DNA of 64,000 bases from a virus: IMG/VR virus record IMGVR_UViG_3300008116_000173, positions 8,522 to 72,521 of that record. The stretch is one strand, 5' to 3'. The position numbers and the translations under genes are program-made. Of this stretch, positions 3,001-56,112 are shown piece by piece (positions within the stretch are counted from its first letter, which is position 1; every line of letters starts with the position of its first letter). Under the pieces are notes generated by a model. That model saw only the letters and a list, made by a program, of their open reading frames with translations. It was not told where the DNA came from and made no database searches.

Positions 3001-6000
3001 ACCTTTGTTTCAAGAAGGTGCTTATTCACCTAAAGCTAAATTAAATATTGGTTTAGCTGATAGAATTAAAGTTGTATCATCATTAGCTGATAACTTTTTA
3101 GCTTTATTGAATCAACGTATAGTTAATGATAAATATGCTGATGTAAGTAAAAAAGATTTATTTAATGGTATATATGATGAATTATACAATCAATTAAATG
3201 AAGCTTTTGATTTAAGCGATTCAGATTTACTTGGTAATGTTATATTAAATTATGCTGATTTAATTAATCAGGATGTTAAAACTAATTTAAAAGAACGTGG
3301 TGTACTTGATAATTTTGATTATGAATTTATTAATAGTGAAGAACGTAATCCTGAATCAAAATCAACATTAACTAATGATGATAAATTAACATTAGCTGTA
3401 TCTGAAACTGAAGAAACTCAAATTAAAGAAGGTAAAGATTCTAAAGGATATAGAGAACAAACTTCTATTTCAGGTTTAACTACTGCATCTGCACGTATTA
3501 AATTATTTTTATCAGCTATACCTGTTTATGAAGAAAATGAAAATGGTGAATTAGTTTATGAAAAAAATGAATTAGGTTTACAAAAATATCATGATTTTAA
3601 ATCATTATATTATTATATAGAAAAGAACTTAATTGATAAATATACTTTTGAAGAACAATTAGCAGTGTTAAAAAATTTAACATCTTCTAATCCTGCTTTA
3701 ATAAGTGTATTAAATAAACTTCAAGTTAATCCGCCCTACATGAGTGCTGAAAGATTTGAAATGTTACAAAATGATTTTAAAACTAATTTTAGTAAACAAC
3801 AACTAGTATACACATTAGTTAAACATTCATATAATCCTGCTAATAATACTATTAGTTTTAAAATAATAGATGCTAATAGAAATAATTTACCTACTAAATT
3901 AAAAGAAAGTTGGAAAAATAGTTATACAGTTAATGTATCTGAAAAAGGTTTATCACAACCAATTAAATTAGAAAACACTCTTAAAAAAGAAATTAAAAAA
4001 CTTGATAATGAAAATGGTGCTTTAGATGTTGATGTTATCAGTTCATTGCTTAAAACTATTCATATTGATTTAAGTAAAAAAACTATAGAAGCTAATGCTG
4101 ATAGTAAAGTATTTGCAAGGGATATAAATGTTGTATTATCATGGTATATTAAAAATAATAATACTAATTATGATGCTGCTACAAGGATAGCTATTGAAAA
4201 TTTAATTAAACTTGAAACAGCTGTAATGATAGAAATGCATTCACAATCATTTATTGATGGTGAAGGTAATAATATCTGGACTATACAATTACCATCTGAA
4301 TTAAGTAAGTTTTTAGCTAAAGTTAAAAATCCTCAAAAACGTGAACGATTTATAAATGATTTCTTTAAAGATGTTTTTTATAAAAATTCTAATTTACTTA
4401 ACGAATTACAACGTAATTCTAAATTTGCTGAAATATTTTCAATATCTTATTTAGATTCATTTAAAGATGAAATAGGTGTTAAAAAAGGTATTGGATTTAC
4501 ATCATTATCACCAAGAGATTATTTAGCTATGAAAATAGCTTTATTTAATAACCTTGAGGTTAATAGTGAAGATCGTTTTACAATGCCTGTAAATAAATAT
4601 TTATATATTGTACCTGCTGATAAGAGTATGCAAGCCATTGTAGACTCTACATCATTTGATGTTTTCTTTGCACCAAACAATATTGAAGTAAGTACCAATA
4701 GTAAAATCATTGAGTCGTTTTATAATATATTTTTACAAGAAGCTAAACGTATAAATAAGTTTAATAAAATAAAAAATAGTTTTTTAACTGAAGGTTCACA
4801 ATCAAAATTTAAACCTACATTGCTTAATGAGTATGGTGTATTTAGTAAAAAAACATATCAAAGTGATTTAGTACAAAATTTATTAAATAAATATAATACT
4901 GAAGGTACATTAACTAATGAAGAATATGCACAATTAGCCAATAAAATGGATGGTCAAGCATTTAAATTTAATTATTTAAATAATGATTATTTTACATTTG
5001 CTAAAAATTTACCACAACAAACTAAAGAGTTAATTAAAAATACATTAGAAAATAGTTTACTTACTGATGATATGCTTGAAAAATCTTTAGCTGCGCAAAA
5101 AAATATAATTAAAAAAGAGTTAGCTTCATTTGTATATAAAACTTATGAAATAACTTTAAAAGAGTGGGAAAGTAAAGGCATAATAACTAAAAATAAAAAT
5201 AATGAATATGTTAATTCATTAGTTCAATTACCTTCTGTAAAAACAACTACTAGTGTAGATCAACGTATTAAAAATTTAGCATTAAAATATAGTGCTAATT
5301 ATTTATTACACAATATTGAACTATCTAATATGTTTAACGGTGATGTATCTCAATATAAACCTAATGATTTACAAAAACGTACTAATCAGTCACAAAGTTT
5401 TATGACTGATGGTAAATTTAATAATCCTGTAATAAGAACTAAAGTAAATAAAGATGTTATACATGATTATTCTTTAGAATCAGATTATACTAACATGGTT
5501 GATGTACTTAAACAATTAGGTGTATCTGATGAACGTATAAATGAAATATTAGATCCATATAAAAAGACTAATGTAACAGATGCTCAAGTAATAATTCATC
5601 CTGAATTTTTTAAACTTATTCATTATTCACAAGGTACTTGGACACCTGAATTAGAAACAGCTTATAACATAGCTGAAGGTATAATACCTGGTGATGCTAA
5701 AAAAAGTGTACAAACATTATTACGTGGTTTTAAACCATTTTATTTTGGTAAACGTTTTGATCCTGTAACTGAAACATGGTATTATGAACAAGTTAAATGT
5801 TCTATGTTTCCATTATTTAAATCTTATACAGATATTAATCCATTATTTGCTTTAAAACGTGAAGAAATGGAAAAAGATAATATAGATATGATAGCTTTTG
5901 AATCATCATTCAAAGGTGCTATAGGTTATAGAAGTGATTTTTTAGATGATAATAAAACTATATTAGAATTAGATGTTAATAATTTTGGTATTCAACAAGC

Positions 6001-38854: not shown

Positions 38855-38868
38855 AATTTATTTTTTAG

Positions 38869-38936
38869 TAGTCAGGGCAGGTCCGAGCTGCATCTCTCAT
38901 CTACTATGATGAGGCGTTACCTTACGCCACCTGACT
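38869..38936 (-). ncRNA. Degenerate tRNA-like cloverleaf element (pseudo-tRNA)
   Basis: Minus strand AGTCAGG-TG-GCGT AAGGTA ACGC-CTCATC ATAGTA GATGAG-AGAT-GCAG CTCGGAC CTGC-CCTGACT-A. Four perfect stems, but the anticodon loop and T-loop are non-canonical. Confidence 0.6.
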
Positions 38937-38947
38937 AACATTATTGA

Positions 38948-39136
38948 TTACTCAATAATTTCTTGTTTATTAATTACTTTAACTAACATTTTACCTATCC
39001 CCATCCATGATGAAGGTGCAAATTCATTTTTATCTGGATTTGTGGTATTAGTAGGTATAAATAATACCCAACCTACTACTGATAATGCAGCTAAAAATGT
39101 TAATAATAGCCATATAATAAAACACCATTGTTTCAT
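38948..39136 (-). CDS. Small membrane protein
   Basis: Hydrophobic N-terminal helix. Confidence 0.55.
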   Translation of the reverse strand: MKQWCFIIWLLLTFLAALSVVGWVLFIPTNTTNPDKNEFAPSSWMGIGKMLVKVINKQEIIE

Positions 39137-39137
39137 A

Positions 39138-39413
39138 TTAGTATGTTATTATAACTTGGTTATTATTAATAGTTAAAGATTTAATATTAAAACGTAATTC
39201 ACGTGTTGTTGTATTTGATACAACAGGTGTAATACGGCTTATAGTACGTTTAGATGATACATTATTCATCTTATGTAGTTTTGATGCTATACTGCTATAA
39301 GTACGTTTATATGTAAGCATATGCATTTTAATAGCATTTAAACGTGATTTACCTTTAAGTGTATTGATAATGTTTAATTGTTTTATTTCTGAATTTGTGA
39401 ATTGTTGACGCAT
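39138..39413 (-). CDS. Small basic hypothetical protein (possible HTH)
   Basis: FTNSEIKQL...RTYSSIASKL pattern. Confidence 0.55.
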   Translation of the reverse strand: MRQQFTNSEIKQLNIINTLKGKSRLNAIKMHMLTYKRTYSSIASKLHKMNNVSSKRTISRITPVVSNTTTRELRFNIKSLTINNNQVIITY

Positions 39414-39436
39414 GATTATGTATAATTAATAATTAA

Positions 39437-39471
39437 TAAAAAATAGGGTAGTATATTTCAACTACCCTATT
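39437..39471 (-). terminator. Intrinsic terminator
   Basis: AATAGGGTAGT (39442-52) / ACTACCCTATT (39461-71) with a T-run on the minus strand. Confidence 0.8.
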
Positions 39472-39480
39472 ACGTGATTA

Positions 39481-39939
39481 TTATGCATTTAAAGCAACTG
39501 TCCTAGTTGCAGCTTGAAATGCTTTAATTTCAGCGGTATTATTATGCTGAATTAATGTATCAACTACACTTAAATCATCAACATATTCAGTACGACGATA
39601 AATAGGTTGACCATTAAATGTACAAGTTGGTGCATTTTCAGCATTACCAGCACGTTTAAGTTGTGAACCTAATTCTTTAGTTAGTGTTTCAACCACAATG
39701 ATATTACCACTCATTTCCATACCTGGTACAAGAAATGTTTTAGCTTTTTCATAAGCTTCTAAAGATATAGATTTTAAAGCTGTACGTACTTTAACGCTAG
39801 CAACGCTAGATGACATATCTACAACTTGTTGTTCTAGACGTAAATAGCCATAAACTTTACCATCTTTACCTAAAGATTCATTAGCTGTGAATACTGTGCC
39901 TGTTGAAGGATTTACTGTTAATTTTACATTTGATTTCAT
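39481..39939 (-). CDS. Early protein, possibly OB-fold/SSB-like
   Basis: Beta-rich 152 aa with a GQPIYRRT motif and its own terminator. The fold call is tentative. Confidence 0.5.
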   Translation of the reverse strand: MKSNVKLTVNPSTGTVFTANESLGKDGKVYGYLRLEQQVVDMSSSVASVKVRTALKSISLEAYEKAKTFLVPGMEMSGNIIVVETLTKELGSQLKRAGNAENAPTCTFNGQPIYRRTEYVDDLSVVDTLIQHNNTAEIKAFQAATRTVALNA

Positions 39940-39985
39940 AATTTTTGTTTTTTAATTGTTTTTGATTGGTTAGTTAATTAATTGA

Positions 39986-40876: not shown

Positions 40877-40977
40877 GGTTATTGTTTTTTAGTTTATGTT
40901 AATGAAATATAACATTACGCTATGTAATATTATAATGTGTATGATTATGTATAATTAATGAAAAGTGAAACAGTGGG

Positions 40978-41208
40978 TTAGAAGACCCACTGCAACACAT
41001 TAGTACCGTCTGTGTGTAACACAAACTCACCATTCTCATTAACTACAGGTGTAGTACTCTTAGGTTCAAAGTCTGTTAGTATGTCACCAACAGCATTTCC
41101 TGGGTTAGCACACCAAGCAAATGTATAGCCAACGCTATATTTAGATGTTTTAGCACCTACTAACATTGTTTTACCTGTTTGTGATAATTTAAATACTTTA
41201 GCTTCCAT
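40978..41208 (-). CDS. Hypothetical early protein (first gene of the leftward block)
   Basis: ORF with an A-rich leader, next to the strand switch. Confidence 0.6.
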   Translation of the reverse strand: MEAKVFKLSQTGKTMLVGAKTSKYSVGYTFAWCANPGNAVGDILTDFEPKSTTPVVNENGEFVLHTDGTNVLQWVF

Positions 41209-41319
41209 GATTTTTGTTTTTTAAGGTTTAGGTGGCAGTACTACCCTTCCTGCCAAAGTTTAGTGGGGGTATGTAGTTGGGGGAGGTCACTAACAACATG
41301 CATATAATTTTTCAAAAAA

Positions 41320-41490
41320 ACTAAAGGTAAAGGTCAATGTATTTTAGTAATTGATTATAGTGAGGAGCATGATTTAAAATGGGTAGTTATACAGGATGAT
41401 ACAGGTGAGGTATGGGCTTGGCCTAATGATAAGGTTAGGGGTTTTAAGAATGTAACTATGGGTAGAAACAGTGTTAGTAAAATAAGTTAA
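41320..41490 (+). pseudogene. Start-less or frameshifted small phage gene
   Basis: Frame reads TKGKGQCILVIDYSEEHDLKWVVIQDDTGEVWAWPNDKVRGFKNVTMGR... It has no in-frame start; the nearest ATG (41298) is out of frame across an A7 run. Confidence 0.5.
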
Positions 41491-41497
41491 TTTATAT

Positions 41498-41770
41498 ATG
41501 AGCAATGATGAATTTCAAATGAAAGGTTTTTGGGATAAGAAACCTACACAAAGTAAGGTTTTTAAACCTAATGAGATTATTGGTTTTTTAATGGTTAATG
41601 GCTCTTGGGCTGTTTATTTAAAGGAAGGTGTTAGGCGTAAAAGGTATGTCCAAAACCCTGAGTTTGAAAACTTTACACAGATTAATCAGGAATTAATTAA
41701 TTATGAATTATGGCAAAAGTATTATAAGGTTATATTAGGGGTTGATGACTTTAGTCATAACATTGAATAA
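41498..41770 (+). CDS. Hypothetical protein
   Basis: 90-aa ORF on the late strand. Confidence 0.55.
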   Translation: MSNDEFQMKGFWDKKPTQSKVFKPNEIIGFLMVNGSWAVYLKEGVRRKRYVQNPEFENFTQINQELINYELWQKYYKVILGVDDFSHNIE

Positions 41771-41820
41771 TTTTTTAATAATTTATAGCTCATATATCAA
41801 AATTTATTGTATATTAATAG

Positions 41821-42120
41821 TATGGTAAGGGTTAACATTGTTAACATCACCTCTGAGGGCCAAAAGGTAGTTAAGAGGTCAGACATTGGGTTAGTAGGTA
41901 TAAATAATACTGAGGTTGTCCCCAATACCTTACAAAAAGGACCTTATAAGGAAAAAGGTAGATAGCTGGAGCACAAGGTAAAGGTACCCTCCTGAATTAA
42001 CAGGGTTAAAGCTTCCAGATAGGTTTAAATGACCTAGGGCTAAATACTGATCTACTATAATCCTAAAGGTTAAAATCGCTTAGTGGTAACATTAAGTCAA
42101 AAAAGGCAGTTTCTGCAGGG
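41821..42120 (+). ncRNA. Candidate structured non-coding RNA
   Basis: GC-enriched intergenic segment with at least nine nested helices and a GNRA-capped hairpin (see findings). Confidence 0.55.
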
Positions 42121-42181
42121 GTATGTTTTATCTTAAAAAATATAAGGGATAGTTATATAACATGTGTTATTATATATTAAA

Positions 42182-42219
42182 TTTGTAAGATATAATAATA
42201 TATGTTATATTTAACATTA
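42182..42219 (+). promoter_or_regulatory. Putative late promoter (TTTG-N20-TATATTTA)
   Basis: Resembles the Bacteroidota -33 TTTG / -7 TAnnTTTG architecture. The 15-mer TTATATTTAACATTA (42205-19) recurs at 49948-62. Confidence 0.55.
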
Positions 42220-42235
42220 AAAGGGTAAAAGTAAT

Positions 42236-42598
42236 ATGGAATATAAAATACCAGTTAATAGCCAGAATTATTTTAAGGCTATGCTGACCGTTTTAAATTT
42301 TAATTTGAATCTGTCAGAATTGGAAATGGATATACTCTGTGCCATGATGAATAATGGTTTGATAGAGGTAAACATTGACACTAGGGAAATTATTAGGAAG
42401 GTGCTTAATAAGGATAAGTTCATGACTAATAATTATATTAAACGATTAAGGAATAAAAATGTACTTTTAGATAAGCCTAATGCCAATAGGGTGTATTATA
42501 TTAATCCAGCTATATTGAACATTATGAATGATATGAAAGTGAGTTTTGAATTTATTATAGCAGATGAAAATAACACAATTCAGGATCAGCAAGATTAA
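42236..42598 (+). CDS. Winged-HTH protein (RepL-like) of the late module
   Basis: LSELEMDIL...NNYIKRLRNKNVL...YYINP. Confidence 0.55.
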   Translation: MEYKIPVNSQNYFKAMLTVLNFNLNLSELEMDILCAMMNNGLIEVNIDTREIIRKVLNKDKFMTNNYIKRLRNKNVLLDKPNANRVYYINPAILNIMNDMKVSFEFIIADENNTIQDQQD

Positions 42599-42746
42599 TG
42601 AAGAAGACTTTGAAGAAGTACTTAATGAGCTTACAATGGGTTTTAGGAAGTATCGTAATAAAAATGTAGGTTTTAATTATACATTGGAGCATGACGATAA
42701 GACTATAACTATTAAGTTTGTAGAGTTAGATGAGTCCGTTAATTGA
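42564..42746 (+). CDS. Hypothetical protein
   Basis: Overlap-coupled ORF. Confidence 0.5.
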   Translation: MKITQFRISKINEEDFEEVLNELTMGFRKYRNKNVGFNYTLEHDDKTITIKFVELDESVN

Positions 42747-44359: not shown

Positions 44360-46375
44360 ATGTCATCTAATACACAATATGTACCACAGGTAGATAAGTT
44401 TGAGAATACCGATGAGTTTAGACAGTTAGCAATACTGTTTGAACAAAAAGGGTATTATACAGATTTACCTAAAGGTACTCCTCAGTATAAAGAGTTTTGG
44501 GTAGAAGAAGATAGGAAATGTAGGTTTGGTGTAACTAATTCAAAAGGGATTAGTATAACAGGTATACATTATTTTTACTTGAATTATATTCAGATTAAAG
44601 CTGAAGATGAATCTACAGGTAGGAAGAAGATGAAGTTCCCAAGATTTTTGGATATTGATTATGATTATTTTCATTTAGTTGAAGCGTGCAGAAGATTAAA
44701 AAAAGGTCTTATATTTTCTAAACCACGACGTACTGGGTTTAGTTATAAGAATGCTGCATTAATGACACATGAATATAATTTTTATAGAGATTCTAAATGT
44801 GTTATAGGTGCTTATTTAGAACGTTTGTCTACAAACACAATGAACATGGTTTTAGACAATATGAACTTTTTAAATGCCAACACAGAATGGCGTAAACAAC
44901 GTAATCCTGATACAAAGGATTTTGTTAAGTCCAGGTTTGAAGCATCTGTAGATGGTGTTAAAGTGTGGCGTGGTTACATGTCTGAAGTAACCAAGTTAAC
45001 ATTTAAAGATAACCCATTTGCATCTGTTGGTTTGAGTGCTAGTGTATTTATATTTGAAGAAGCTGGTACTTTGGTAAACCTAAAAGAATCTTATAATATG
45101 TCAGAGCCGTGCTGGAAAGATGGTGAGAATATGATAGGTGTACCTATTGTATTTGGTACTGGTGGTGATATGGAAGGTGGTACAGCAGACTTTGCATACA
45201 TGTTTAATAACCCAAAACAATATAACTTGTTAGAGTTTACAAATGTGTGGGAAGATGGTAAATCACATACTAGTTGTGGTTGGTTTATACCAGCTACACG
45301 TGGTAGGTTAGGTTTATACAAAAATAAACGCATGGTAGATGTGGATGGTAATTCTGATCAGGAATTAGCATTAGAATCAATTATGAGTTTACGTGAAGCT
45401 AAAAGATCAGGGCATGATAATAAGGCTTTACAAGATGCTATAACACAGTATCCATTAACACCTAGTGAATCTTTTTTAAGGAACGCAGGCACAGTATTTT
45501 CAAGTATGGAGATGAATGAATGGTTAGCTAAACTTGAAACTACACCTTCTTTAAGGGATGATAAAAAGAAAGTTGAATTATACTTTGATACAAATAACAA
45601 GCTTAAAGCTAAAATAAACCCAGATCTGCAGGATATTATAAATTATCCTTTGCAGAAGTCAGATAACAAAGAGGGTTGTGTTGTATTGTATGAGGATCCT
45701 GTAGATAACCCACCATTTGGGTTGTATATTGCAGGGTGTGACCCATATGATCAAGATAAAGCACAACACAGTGAATCATTAGGTTCATTCTTTGTGTACA
45801 AAAGGTTTATGACTAATGCTCATACCTACGATCATATTGTAGCTGAGTATACAGGTAGACCTGAAAGAGCTGATGATTTTTATGAAACATGCAGACGTTT
45901 ATGCATATATTACAATGCTAAGTGTTTGTATGAAAACCAGCTTAAAGGTTTAAAAGGTTATTTTGAAATGAAGAACAGCCTGCATTATTTGTGTGAACAA
46001 CCACAGATAATTAAGGATATTGTTACTAATTCAAAAGTGAGCAGGGGATATGGTATTCATATGGCTATACAAATTAAAGATCAATGTGAATTGTATTTAA
46101 AACAATGGTTATATGAAGAACGTGAGGATATAGATGGAAAAAAAATATTAAATTTACATACTATAAAATCTATACCACTGCTTAAAGAATTAATTACATA
46201 TGACAGACAAGCTAACACGGATAGAGTTATAGCTTTTATGTTATGTATATTACAATCCAAAGAATTACATAAAATTCATTTGGAAGAAACACAACCTAAA
46301 ACTATTTTAGAAATGGACCCTTTCTTTTCAAAGCGTTTGTTTCAAAAAAATACATACAATAAAATTAAATACTAA
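44360..46375 (+). CDS. terL: Terminase large subunit
   Basis: ITGIHYFYLNY, KPRRTGFSYK Walker A, FEEAG, FGTGG, GCDPYD, YENQ and DRVIA nuclease motifs. Confidence 0.93.
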   Translation: MSSNTQYVPQVDKFENTDEFRQLAILFEQKGYYTDLPKGTPQYKEFWVEEDRKCRFGVTNSKGISITGIHYFYLNYIQIKAEDESTGRKKMKFPRFLDIDYDYFHLVEACRRLKKGLIFSKPRRTGFSYKNAALMTHEYNFYRDSKCVIGAYLERLSTNTMNMVLDNMNFLNANTEWRKQRNPDTKDFVKSRFEASVDGVKVWRGYMSEVTKLTFKDNPFASVGLSASVFIFEEAGTLVNLKESYNMSEPCWKDGENMIGVPIVFGTGGDMEGGTADFAYMFNNPKQYNLLEFTNVWEDGKSHTSCGWFIPATRGRLGLYKNKRMVDVDGNSDQELALESIMSLREAKRSGHDNKALQDAITQYPLTPSESFLRNAGTVFSSMEMNEWLAKLETTPSLRDDKKKVELYFDTNNKLKAKINPDLQDIINYPLQKSDNKEGCVVLYEDPVDNPPFGLYIAGCDPYDQDKAQHSESLGSFFVYKRFMTNAHTYDHIVAEYTGRPERADDFYETCRRLCIYYNAKCLYENQLKGLKGYFEMKNSLHYLCEQPQIIKDIVTNSKVSRGYGIHMAIQIKDQCELYLKQWLYEEREDIDGKKILNLHTIKSIPLLKELITYDRQANTDRVIAFMLCILQSKELHKIHLEETQPKTILEMDPFFSKRLFQKNTYNKIKY

Positions 46376-49922: not shown

Positions 49923-49962
49923 TTTGTAAATTATATAACAAGAAGTATTATATTTAACATTA
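49923..49962 (+). promoter_or_regulatory. Putative late promoter for the capsid genes
   Basis: TTTG-N22-TATATTTA, sharing the 15-mer TTATATTTAACATTA with 42205-19. Confidence 0.55.
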
Positions 49963-49969
49963 TAACAAC

Positions 49970-51175
49970 ATGGCAAAAAGTAAAAGTACAGAAGAAACAG
50001 CAGGAACAAGTCCTTTTGGAGGGTTTAAAATTCTACAAGGTGAATTTCCACCCCCACCTGCAACTGATGATATTCAGGATGGTGATGATGTAGCATTAGT
50101 TGATAAAACTGATGATGCAGAAGAAGAACAAACTGATGATCAAAAGCAAAGGATGCTTGAAGCTGACAAGAAGCTAGAAAAAGTAGCTGAAAAAGCAGCT
50201 AAAAATTCTAAAAAAACTGAAGATGTTGCTCAAGATGAAACAGATGAAGAAGCTGAAGATGAAGTTGAAGATGATACTGATACTGATAATCTGGCAGATG
50301 AGTCTGATGATGACAACACTGAGTCACCGCTCAAAGAATTTGCTAAATCTCTTTACAACAAAGGGGTTTTGGATTTTGATGATAGTGATGAAGAGTTTGA
50401 AGACAGTGAAGAAGGTCTTGAAAAACTGGTTAACAAGACTGTAGAAAACAGGATTAATGATTGGGTATCCAATTTACCTGATGAATACAGTAAATTTTTA
50501 GAGTTTGTTCAAAATGGTGGTCAACCTAAAGATTTCCTTAATGTATATTACGGTAATCACTCTTGGGAAAACTACAAAGTAGAAAATGAAAGTCAACAAA
50601 TAGTAGCTGTTGAAGAGTCCCTAAGACTTACAGGTGAAACTGAAGAAGATATTAGGGATATGGTTGAAGAATGGCGTGATAATGGTACTTTAGAAAAACG
50701 TGCTAAATCAGCTTTAACTAAACTTCAACGTATAGAAGCAAGTCAAAAACAAGAACTTGTAGAAATACAAAAACAACAAGCTGCAAAACAAAAAGCTGCA
50801 CAAAAACAATACTGGGATAATTTTAAAAACAGTTTGTTTGAACGTGAAGACATTAAAGGGTTTAAATTAACTCCTAAAATGAAAGAACAGCTTTGGCATC
50901 ATATGACTGCTATAGATAAGTCCACTGGTAAAACAGGTTATCAGATGGCAGTAGAGCAGGATAATGAAGCTTCACTGTTGTTTGCTTTACAATCAATGTT
51001 AGGTTTTGACATTAAGAAACTTGAAAAACAAGTTGAAAGTAAAGTAAGTAACAAATTCAGCAAAATGCTGAAAAATTACAATAAATCATCTAAAGAGAAA
51101 ATTTCTTCAGGTGGTACACAAGATTTTGGTGGTGGGAATAATCCATTCTCAGGCTTTAAATCTGTTAAACTTTGA
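49970..51175 (+). CDS. Acidic scaffold-like structural protein preceding the MCP
   Basis: Highly acidic N-terminal half, coiled-coil C-terminal half, position before the MCP. Confidence 0.7.
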   Translation: MAKSKSTEETAGTSPFGGFKILQGEFPPPPATDDIQDGDDVALVDKTDDAEEEQTDDQKQRMLEADKKLEKVAEKAAKNSKKTEDVAQDETDEEAEDEVEDDTDTDNLADESDDDNTESPLKEFAKSLYNKGVLDFDDSDEEFEDSEEGLEKLVNKTVENRINDWVSNLPDEYSKFLEFVQNGGQPKDFLNVYYGNHSWENYKVENESQQIVAVEESLRLTGETEEDIRDMVEEWRDNGTLEKRAKSALTKLQRIEASQKQELVEIQKQQAAKQKAAQKQYWDNFKNSLFEREDIKGFKLTPKMKEQLWHHMTAIDKSTGKTGYQMAVEQDNEASLLFALQSMLGFDIKKLEKQVESKVSNKFSKMLKNYNKSSKEKISSGGTQDFGGGNNPFSGFKSVKL

Positions 51176-52666: not shown

Positions 52667-52683
52667 TTGTTATATAGGCTTTG

Positions 52684-52713
52684 AAGGGTGTGCCTTAAAC
52701 ACCCTTTATTTTT
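52684..52713 (+). terminator. Intrinsic terminator after the MCP
   Basis: AAGGGTGT / ACACCCTT stem followed by TATTTTT. Confidence 0.75.
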
Positions 52714-56071: not shown

Positions 56072-56112
56072 CCCAGGCTGTTTGGTGTCCTACCGCAGCT
56101 TGGGGCTTTTTT
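56072..56112 (+). terminator. Intrinsic terminator
   Basis: CCCAGGCTG / CAGCTTGGG stem followed by TTTTTT. Confidence 0.65.

Follow-up and report, generated by a model that had tools for sequence, protein, structure and literature searches.

What occupies the 465-nucleotide (nt) gap, from 41771 to 42235, near the start of the rightward gene block of an uncultured virus? The gap lies between open reading frames (ORFs) of 90 and 120 amino acids (aa) in the window analysed here, a stretch of 64,000 nt with roughly 29% G+C that comes from the 72.5-kb IMG/VR virus record IMGVR_UViG_3300008116_000173; the only ORFs of at least 30 aa that overlap the gap are one of 52 aa on the plus strand and one of 42 aa on the minus strand. 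A first-pass annotation, made from the sequence alone, had placed a multi-domain structured RNA of about 300 nt here (41821-42120). Our comparative analysis indicates that the gap holds the gene of a structured phage RNA that belongs to a new family, is roughly 300 nt in length, is encoded on the plus strand and is provided with its own host-type promoter; judged from sequence comparison, the family is almost certainly real, functional and uncatalogued. At least nine helices in three domains are kept by compensatory substitution across phages whose terminases are about 51-55% identical.

A direct check of the sequence recovered, in place, every helix that the first-pass annotation had listed, from the outermost P1 pairing (GTAAGG 41825-30 with CCTTAC 41928-33) inwards (Table 1), and RNAfold returns essentially the same architecture at -78.9 kcal/mol. 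Shuffled sequences average -70.6 ± 4.8 kcal/mol, giving a z of -1.74 with 3 of 100 shuffles equally stable, and the minus strand folds with a z of -0.95; single-sequence folding energy is thus only marginally better than chance and is weak evidence, and it is the comparison across homologues, not energy, that establishes structure beyond chance. A structure-blind MAFFT alignment of ten homologues yields 65 RNAalifold pairs, 37 of them with compensatory changes. Two covariance models, R1 for domains 2-3 and R2 for domain 1, supplied larger alignments, which are model-fitted and so favour the structure; the MAFFT/RNAalifold check is independent of that fitting. For R1, whose alignment comprises 34 distinct sequences and 43 pairs, standard pairs fill 95.1% of cells as against 69.5 ± 0.9% in shuffles, 38 of the 43 pairs show changes on both sides, and none of 500 shuffles reaches the covariation score. 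The R2 alignment (25 sequences, 20 pairs) has 98.4% of its cells paired as against 69.0% in shuffles and compensatory changes in 15 of its 20 pairs, with 0/500 shuffles reaching the score; on a measure of further pair types it is not significant (123/500 shuffles). Sliding the partners by one to three columns lowers pairing to 30-50%, and over both models 53 of 63 modelled pairs carry compensatory changes. P1, which the programs align poorly, was inspected directly and occurs in at least ten different complementary forms, among them GUAAGG/CCUUAC, UGGGA/UCCCA, UGAGC/GCUCA, UAGGC/GCCUA, GAAGG/CCUUC, UAGGA/UCCUA, UGUAC/GUACA and UACAC/GUGUA. In the members that have P9, all eight of its pairs are kept, seven of them with compensatory changes, and the loop reads GTAA or GTGA. 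The covariation proposed as a check on the annotated structure is therefore strong in all three alignments. Its assignment to the plus strand is likewise borne out: paired cells contain 175 G-U but 14 A-C combinations, and the RNA is therefore read from that strand.

Table 1. Positions of the RNA, its parts and its flanking elements in the window.
Feature	Position	Strand	Remarks
Promoter of the RNA	41780-41820	+	-7 box TATATTAA at 41810-41817, Bacteroidota TAnnTTTG type
Domain 1, four-way junction	41825-41933	+	Model R2 alignment
P2 hairpin, GTTAAC/GTTAAC	41831-36/41840-45	+	
P3, ACCTCT/AGAGGT	41849-54/41874-79	+	Conserved GARG...AGUA-type loop
P4, ATTGGG/CCCAAT	41885-90/41921-26	+	With P4a at 41892-94/41916-18
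P4b variable hairpin	41897-901/41907-11	+	Loop TAAATAA
A-rich joiner between domains 1 and 2, consensus AGAAACAG	41934-41939	+	Near-invariant A and G positions in two alignments
Domain 2	41940-42071	+	Model R1 alignment
P5	41940-45/42066-71	+	Includes ACCTT 41941-45 / AAGGT 42066-70
P5a, AGGA/TCCT	41949-52/42061-64	+	
P6, GTAGAT/ATCTAC	41958-63/42050-55	+	
P7, CTGGAGC / GCTTCCAG	41966-72/42011-18	+	Bears hairpins P7a and P7b
P7a hairpin	41976-90	+	
P7b, CCTG/CAGG	41991-94/42001-04	+	Loop AATTAA
P8, TAGGT/ACCTA	42020-24/42032-36	+	
Near-invariant joiner J8/6, GGGCTAAATACTG	42037-49	+	
Domain 3, P9 hairpin CTTAGTG-GTAA-CATTAAG	42079-42096	+	GNRA tetraloop; loop GTAA at 42086-89
Lineage-specific small hairpin GCAG/CTGC	42106-09/42113-16	+	Within 42106-42135
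Near-invariant purine tail AGGGG, then TATGTTTTATCTT	42117-21	+	
AT-rich inverted repeat ATAAC-ATG-TGTTAT	42157-42170		Conserved ATAAC/GTTAT half-sites
Second promoter, TTTG-N20-TATATTTA	42182-42213	+	Serves the HTH gene 42236-42598; same arrangement in relatives

Homologues were gathered by several routes. Eighteen loci were fetched by way of their TerL proteins, and nhmmer with the element found ten matches in them, every one upstream of terL. A 20-mer pattern taken from the most conserved joiner and scanned through the viral collection hit 20 places, 13 of them homologues and seven chance matches in coding DNA, and a longer pattern hit seven metagenome contigs, mostly from the same phages; in its strict form the longer pattern had no match in 185,579 GTDB species genomes. 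Model R1 was run on 77 sources, including 61 further loci from a TerL alignment (the best 80 of 176 candidates), and gave 46 matches at E<=1, all on the terL strand and 2-4.5 kb upstream of terL, in phages reaching down to about 51% TerL identity. Model R2 gave 25 matches, all but one directly adjoining an R1 match; the exception is a partial match in locus L079, where domain 1 is split by an insertion. The core pattern GAAGTANNCNNCTGANTTAACAG then picked out 28 viral contigs, 21 known carriers and seven new ones, all seven confirmed by R1. In the GTDB genomes it matched nine places (six in Ignavibacteria, two in Kordiimonas-type genomes and one in Paenochrobactrum), all inside ORFs and spanning 30 nt of the model only, and none is a homologue; the two pattern scans of the 185,579 genomes thus found no copy.

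In total the RNA is carried by 49 IMG/VR contigs besides the window's own record, and it is present in 40 of 49 terL-anchored loci that include the helix-turn-helix (HTH) gene and the sequence upstream of it; among those 49 loci, L055 and L061 give weak or partial matches and L098 and L104 none. L052 and L053 hold a divergent form, judged by eye: in L053 (~3300-3790) it has domain 1, GGGCTAAATACC and a CTAAGGGGATAG tail and is missed by both R1 and R2, and a promoter and then a putative tRNA gene, judged by eye, follow it ahead of the HTH gene. In five reference crAss-like genomes (Fpv20, cr52_1, phi14:2, ProJPt-Bp1 and PhiCrAssBcn19) R1 found nothing and R2 gave two weak matches (E=0.09 and E=0.96) that we disregarded, and blastn of the element against 50,697 phage records returned no match. 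The RNA is widespread in an environmental branch of Crassvirales-like phages.

It is extremely unlikely that the element is no RNA at all and instead a protein-coding remnant, a single-stranded DNA structure or chance, a reading that is already largely refuted. The single-sequence z of only -1.74 would suit it, and G-T wobble exists in DNA too; against this stand the compensatory changes in most modelled pairs, the promoter at the 5' edge, the conserved GNRA loop, the core pattern, which marks family members in 28 of 28 viral matches and in 0 of 9 bacterial ones, and the fate of the one ORF that might have been a gene. Conservation of the short ORF from ATG 41822 as protein would have told against an RNA; it is not conserved, so the RNA reading survives and the ORF is rejected as a protein. 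Its protein-level matches are confined to near-identical copies and two close lineages, with an internal stop in the L004 lineage and a partial match of only 31 residues in the L034 lineage; more distant members give no protein-level match, and in several the ATG itself is missing.

Nor does the RNA belong to a catalogued family. Rfam 15 (4227 models) at gathering thresholds has no match anywhere in the 64-kb window, and in sensitive mode over 41600-42400 only Flavi_TBFV_SL6 appears, at 13.9 bits against a threshold of 38.3 (E=4.2), which is junk; the diverged members L099 and L059 have no match at E<=10, and five whole loci contain only tRNAs, located elsewhere. The first-pass annotation had not recognised the element as tRNA, transfer-messenger RNA (tmRNA), RNase P or an intron, and on each count this is upheld. 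ARAGORN reports neither tRNA nor tmRNA at 41821-42135, and Rfam none; no covariance model of RNase P RNA, 6S RNA or signal recognition particle RNA matches even at E<=10, which gives no support to a mimic of these; and a group I or II intron is rejected on the lack of any intron-model match and of exons, the latter because the promoter abuts the 5' end while an inverted repeat and a promoter form the 3' flank. A riboswitch was set aside as well, given that a promoter separates the RNA from the next ORF, the mini-ORFs are unconserved and the phage shows no Shine-Dalgarno usage.

The promoter-like motif that had been noticed immediately upstream, TGTATATTAATA (41808-19), holds a conserved -7 box. 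TAnnTTTG is the Bacteroidota -7 consensus as cited in PMC7641319, and host-type (Bacteroidota sigma-A-like) promoter elements can be recognised that end a few bases before P1. The -7 box lies 15-36 nt before the domain-1 model match in 23 of 24 homologues, and P1 begins 4-8 nt past it. The strict arrangement TTTG-N17-22-TAnnTT is present in 12 of the 24, most of the others having TTAG, CTTG or GTTG at -33 (by eye); the window's own -33 element is degenerate (~41782-41790).

Around the covarying helices, the family combines a near-invariant core with a tolerant periphery. The joiner AGGGCUnAAnACU is near-invariant, and so are two hairpins, GGUAWGAAGUAUCC and CCUG-AAUUAA-CAGG, the interdomain A-rich joiner and the 3' tail (A/G)AAGGGG; AAGGGG is found in 27 of 28 homologues examined (L070 has AAGGGC) and is usually followed 4-7 nt later by (A/G)TGT(C/T). 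By comparison, P2 is missing in L029 and L031 and P8 in L071 and L079, roughly half of the 34 sequences lack P9 and its GNRA loop, and P4b carries insertions of at least 60 nt in some members. In L079 (112-525) a 137-aa HNH homing-endonuclease ORF sits inside P4b, the remaining RNA being intact around it, and in a near-identical relative of the window (L003:2359-2489) a clean 41-nt deletion removes P7a and P7b and leaves a CTGG-AGCTT-CCAG hairpin. L034 and L055 have an endonuclease-like ORF between the RNA tail and the inverted repeat, and L004 (~3820-4150) has an HExxH metallopeptidase-like ORF directly behind the tail, in each case with no visible promoter. L008 has, downstream of its RNA (~4090-4170), a further element with a long stem, GAGCTCTCT...AGAGAGCTC, around a T-loop-like GGGGTTTGAGTCCC. 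The AAGGGG tail was considered as a ribosome-binding site and rejected: the leaders of the phage's own genes are A-rich and carry no Shine-Dalgarno motif, and the mini-ORFs behind the tail (2-11 codons) show no conservation and do not occur in several members.

Near-invariant junctions set between helices that covary are also what a ribozyme or a ligand-sensing RNA would display, with the invariant three-way junction of domain 2 (J8/6, AGGGCUAAAUACUG) as its catalytic or ligand-binding core, and the GNRA tetraloop and a homing-endonuclease ORF in a peripheral loop, as in self-splicing introns, fit such a molecule. We nevertheless consider this very unlikely: even at E<=10, Rfam offers no matching ribozyme, intron or riboswitch; the promoter abuts the 5' end and there are no exons; a promoter precedes the next ORF, so that no regulated ORF lies directly behind; and the search for signatures of a pseudoknot or a cleavage site came up empty. 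When every pair of columns was scanned for pseudoknots or covarying tertiary pairs, the only signals were transition-type or clade-correlated, none of them convincing.

The same locus in other phages holds different RNAs. A class 2 element, a distinct conserved structured element between the small ORF and the HTH gene, is found in L010 (~1500-1740) and L011 (~1925-2150); in L011 it folds with a z of -2.56 and ends in a GTGGG...CCCAC hairpin followed by the T-rich run TTTCTCTTT. A class 3 element in L076 (~1480-1790) is unrelated, about 300 nt long, has its own promoter and a z of -2.60, and ends in a strong intrinsic terminator, a 14-bp stem followed by TTTATTGTTT; at a guess L073 is class 3 too, its HTH match being identical to that of L076. 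Neither class matches Rfam.

Behind the RNA, the separate promoter that the first-pass annotation had assigned to the next gene is present (Table 1). In most homologous loci, also where the RNA is a different one, ATAAC...GTTAT-type repeats stand just before the -33 element of this next promoter. The window's inverted repeat is probably an operator for the HTH protein encoded behind it, a weak hairpin at which transcription of the RNA ends, or both; the terminator scan does not pick it up. A 15-mer, TTATATTTAACATTA, is common to the HTH-gene promoter (42203-42217) and to a promoter at 49923-49956 before a 401-aa ORF at 49970 (49946-49960), which suggests a phage-specific extended promoter class.

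How the RNA acts is a question on which we lean, with rather less than even confidence, towards a free RNA that works by binding a partner, the folded RNA itself being the product. Host polymerase would make it from a strong promoter without an adjacent operator; it would fold from the 5' end into a compact tertiary core; and it would bind a partner, most likely a host or phage protein, as regulator, scaffold or decoy, with the conserved single-stranded joiners and the purine tail as the contact surface. We favour a free RNA because a full promoter, together with the inverted repeat (42157-42213), separates the RNA from the HTH gene, in relatives as well; because terminator-like hairpins close the unrelated RNAs of this locus (L076, L011); because the size, the many helices and the invariant junctions are usual in RNAs whose function depends on the fold; and because the periphery tolerates cargo, with genes behind the tail in L034, L055 and L004 and inside P4b in L079. 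Several points weigh against it. A terminator scan of 41200-42700 found no canonical intrinsic terminator behind the RNA, so that of the original proposal of a standalone phage non-coding RNA, the real RNA with its own promoter is borne out, and standalone stays a conjecture, as do the roles suggested with it (packaging, regulation, catalysis or an anti-defence decoy). Since the ORFs behind the tail in L034, L055 and L004 lack promoters, transcription must pass the tail there. To treat the three RNA classes as functionally equivalent is an assumption. Finally, in three of four RNA-library runs (X7, X8 and X9) the contigs start at 41839 and run unbroken into the downstream late genes, though these may be DNA.

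These same observations bring in a cis-acting leader or gate, in which transcripts would start with the RNA and continue into the arm of HTH, HU, terminase and virion genes, the RNA influencing, through processive antitermination or attenuation, either the complex that transcribes it or the weak AT-rich hairpin behind it, by the logic of lambda PR'-6S-tR'/Q or HK022 put. The RNA does lie between its promoter (41780-41820) and genes that it might control, the HTH-to-terL arm downstream on the same strand, and this position and orientation at the head of the rightward arm suit a leader, as do the missing strong terminator, the promoter-less ORFs behind the tail (L034, L055, L004), the ORF inside the RNA (L079) and real terminators further along the arm (52682-52708 and 56087-56106), which long transcripts would have to pass. 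RNA-library contigs that bridge the RNA and the downstream genes add weak support. An intrinsic terminator with regulated read-through and without an intervening promoter, as expected of a leader, is however not what the window holds: the scan gave no site, and the promoter at 42182-42213 intervenes; in most loci such a second full promoter between the RNA and the first gene would bypass a leader. The terminator-like ends of the unrelated RNAs at the locus speak against it too, known antitermination RNAs are much smaller (~70-120 nt), and the alternative tail pairings that a switch needs are inconsistent between lineages. The best duplex of the AAGGGG tail is with the P7a/P7b linker in some lineages and with the 3' strand of P4 in others, L029 breaking the P4 option, and the mean z of these pairings, -2.2 and -2.4, is inflated, since shuffles break the G run. 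A leader is in our estimate a possible function, on the doubtful side; as an account it is nearly as good as a free RNA, by virtue of the missing terminator and the promoter-less ORFs behind the tail.

The RNA libraries in question are riverine metatranscriptomes. Eight runs hold 48-74% of the sampled words of 41700-42300, and contigs of four of them cover the element and neighbouring DNA; DNA carry-over is possible, and the contigs show no transcript ends. Run X10 has a 408-nt contig covering 41734-42140. In all four runs the contigs depart from the window at 40889/40940 and cover it again from 41839 (X7-X9) or 41734 (X10); the strains in the river samples differ from the window just left of 41839. 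In X7, X8 and X9 a joint also skips 564 nt at 39413-39978 of the window, which removes the ORF at 39481-39939.

The tail invites one more reading, a transcript-primed replication origin modelled on ColE1 RNA II or on the logic of mitochondrial conserved sequence blocks (CSB), in which a strong host promoter would produce the RNA as a structured pre-primer; its invariant G-rich tail would stay hybridised beside the most AT-rich stretch, and DNA synthesis would begin there. A ColE1 RNA II-type primer works through a persistent RNA-DNA hybrid at the origin, RNase H processing and an antisense control RNA. The invariant AAGGGG does come directly before a stretch of 20-22% GC (42100-42324), both the minimum of the cumulative GC skew and the divergence point of the leftward and rightward gene blocks are within about 2 kb of the locus, and the exchange of the RNA for other classes there is reminiscent of replicon control RNAs. 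The GC skew at the locus, however, simply follows gene orientation, none of the neighbouring genes is one for replication, there is no sign of an R-loop, of an antisense control RNA or of a start of replication, and a GNRA hairpin and ornate junctions are unnecessary for priming; we regard a primed origin as quite unlikely.

A broader conjecture takes the locus to be, in this clade of crAss-like phages, a cassette site for interchangeable, unrelated, ornate RNAs of at least three classes with strong host-type promoters. Such RNA-only effectors, made at once on infection, would be decoys or inhibitors of host defence or machinery, swapped in an arms race like the protein anti-defence genes upstream of aca-type HTH genes. 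We think this improbable.

The phage itself has two giant ORFs on the plus strand (3316 and 2056 aa), then a minus-strand block (16.6-41.2 kb) and, from 41.5 kb, a plus-strand block in which terL (44360-46375) and an ORF of portal size lie; the conserved gene order runs from the small ORF through the RNA, the HTH gene and the HU-like gene to terL. TerL matches phrog_6681 (E 1.3e-141), and its identity to terminases from 162 GenBank phages, almost all of them crAss-like (from Bacteroides, Flavobacterium and Cellulophaga), does not exceed 38%, which indicates a distant, uncultured Crassvirales-like phage of freshwater as the source. Outside the RNA, ARAGORN reports an odd tRNA at 38868-38936 on the minus strand, with an undetermined two-base anticodon '(ag)' and a score below the threshold of the Rfam tRNA model. 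An exact 20-nt direct repeat, TTAGTAGGTATAAATAATAC, occurs at 39048-39067 and at 41891-41910, the second copy being arm P4b of the RNA. The first lies in a gap (38855-39480) in which a small minus-strand ORF can be read by eye, and a plus-strand RNA would be perfectly antisense over 20 nt to the mRNA of that ORF. Among 14 loci from other homologues, 13 have no such antisense match of 13 nt or more, and L031 has one opposite-strand match of 13 nt.

Large, elaborately folded non-coding RNAs with strong covariation are rare, and new classes have tended to reveal new biology. The RNA is well defined, with at least nine covarying helices, an invariant core and a clear promoter, and it sits at a regulatory hub, where the replication arm gives way to the arm for packaging and the virion, at a locus that also hosts unrelated structured RNAs. 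At about 300 nt it is a concrete, synthesisable target, and it may bear on the timing or protection of the late programme of crAss-like phages, which is poorly understood.

Among known systems, phi29 packaging RNA (pRNA) is likewise a structured RNA encoded by a phage whose relatives keep the locus while the sequence varies. RNAs of the phi29 type are about 120-174 nt long, have two domains with intermolecular loop pairing and bind the portal connector; the RNA described here differs in size and architecture, with domains built on a four-way and a three-way junction, gives no Rfam match and accompanies a full-size crAss-type TerL (phrog_6681). The lambda late gate consists of the PR' promoter, a 194-nt 6S transcript, tR' and Q, and the put RNAs of HK022 act in cis on polymerase. 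With these the locus shares a strong promoter followed by an untranslated transcript at the head of the late or virion genes and, with put, the possibility of RNA structure working in cis. Unlike them, the RNA here is far larger and structurally conserved, has no strong terminator behind it and is followed by a second promoter before the first gene, and no Q-like factor was identified.

In acr-aca loci, as PMC13551039 describes them, a strong promoter with inverted-repeat operators drives a variable element that directly precedes a small, conserved HTH gene. The present locus resembles them in having a variable element with a strong promoter ahead of such an HTH gene, and an inverted repeat, a likely operator, at a promoter; it departs from them in that the variable element is a large RNA and not a protein gene and that the HTH gene has its own promoter, and any link to defence would be by analogy only. 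Fremin, Bhatt and Kyrpides (2023) mined 10,006 candidate motifs from IMG/VR by covariation, some upstream of terminase genes (PMC10690425). The text of that paper names no crAss or Bacteroidota motif ('crass' 0, 'bacteroid' 0), and no published description of the RNA was found in the literature searched, so far as its text was accessible; it may be an unnamed entry in the supplementary list of PMC10690425, with whose motifs it has both data source and type of evidence, covariation in viral contigs, in common.

Further parallels are GOLLD and ROOL, Rfam families of large ornate RNAs that are often borne by prophages or phages (cryo-EM preprint 10.1101/2024.12.08.627333). The Rfam scans reveal no sequence or structure match to either, and here the carriers are Crassvirales-like phages of Bacteroidota-type hosts, with a fixed locus and the RNA's own promoter. 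GOLLD and ROOL are also longer, at about 580-800 nt as against about 300 nt. Like them, however, the RNA at this locus is phage-borne, large and multi-domain, defined by covariation, and built from conserved junctions with a variable periphery.

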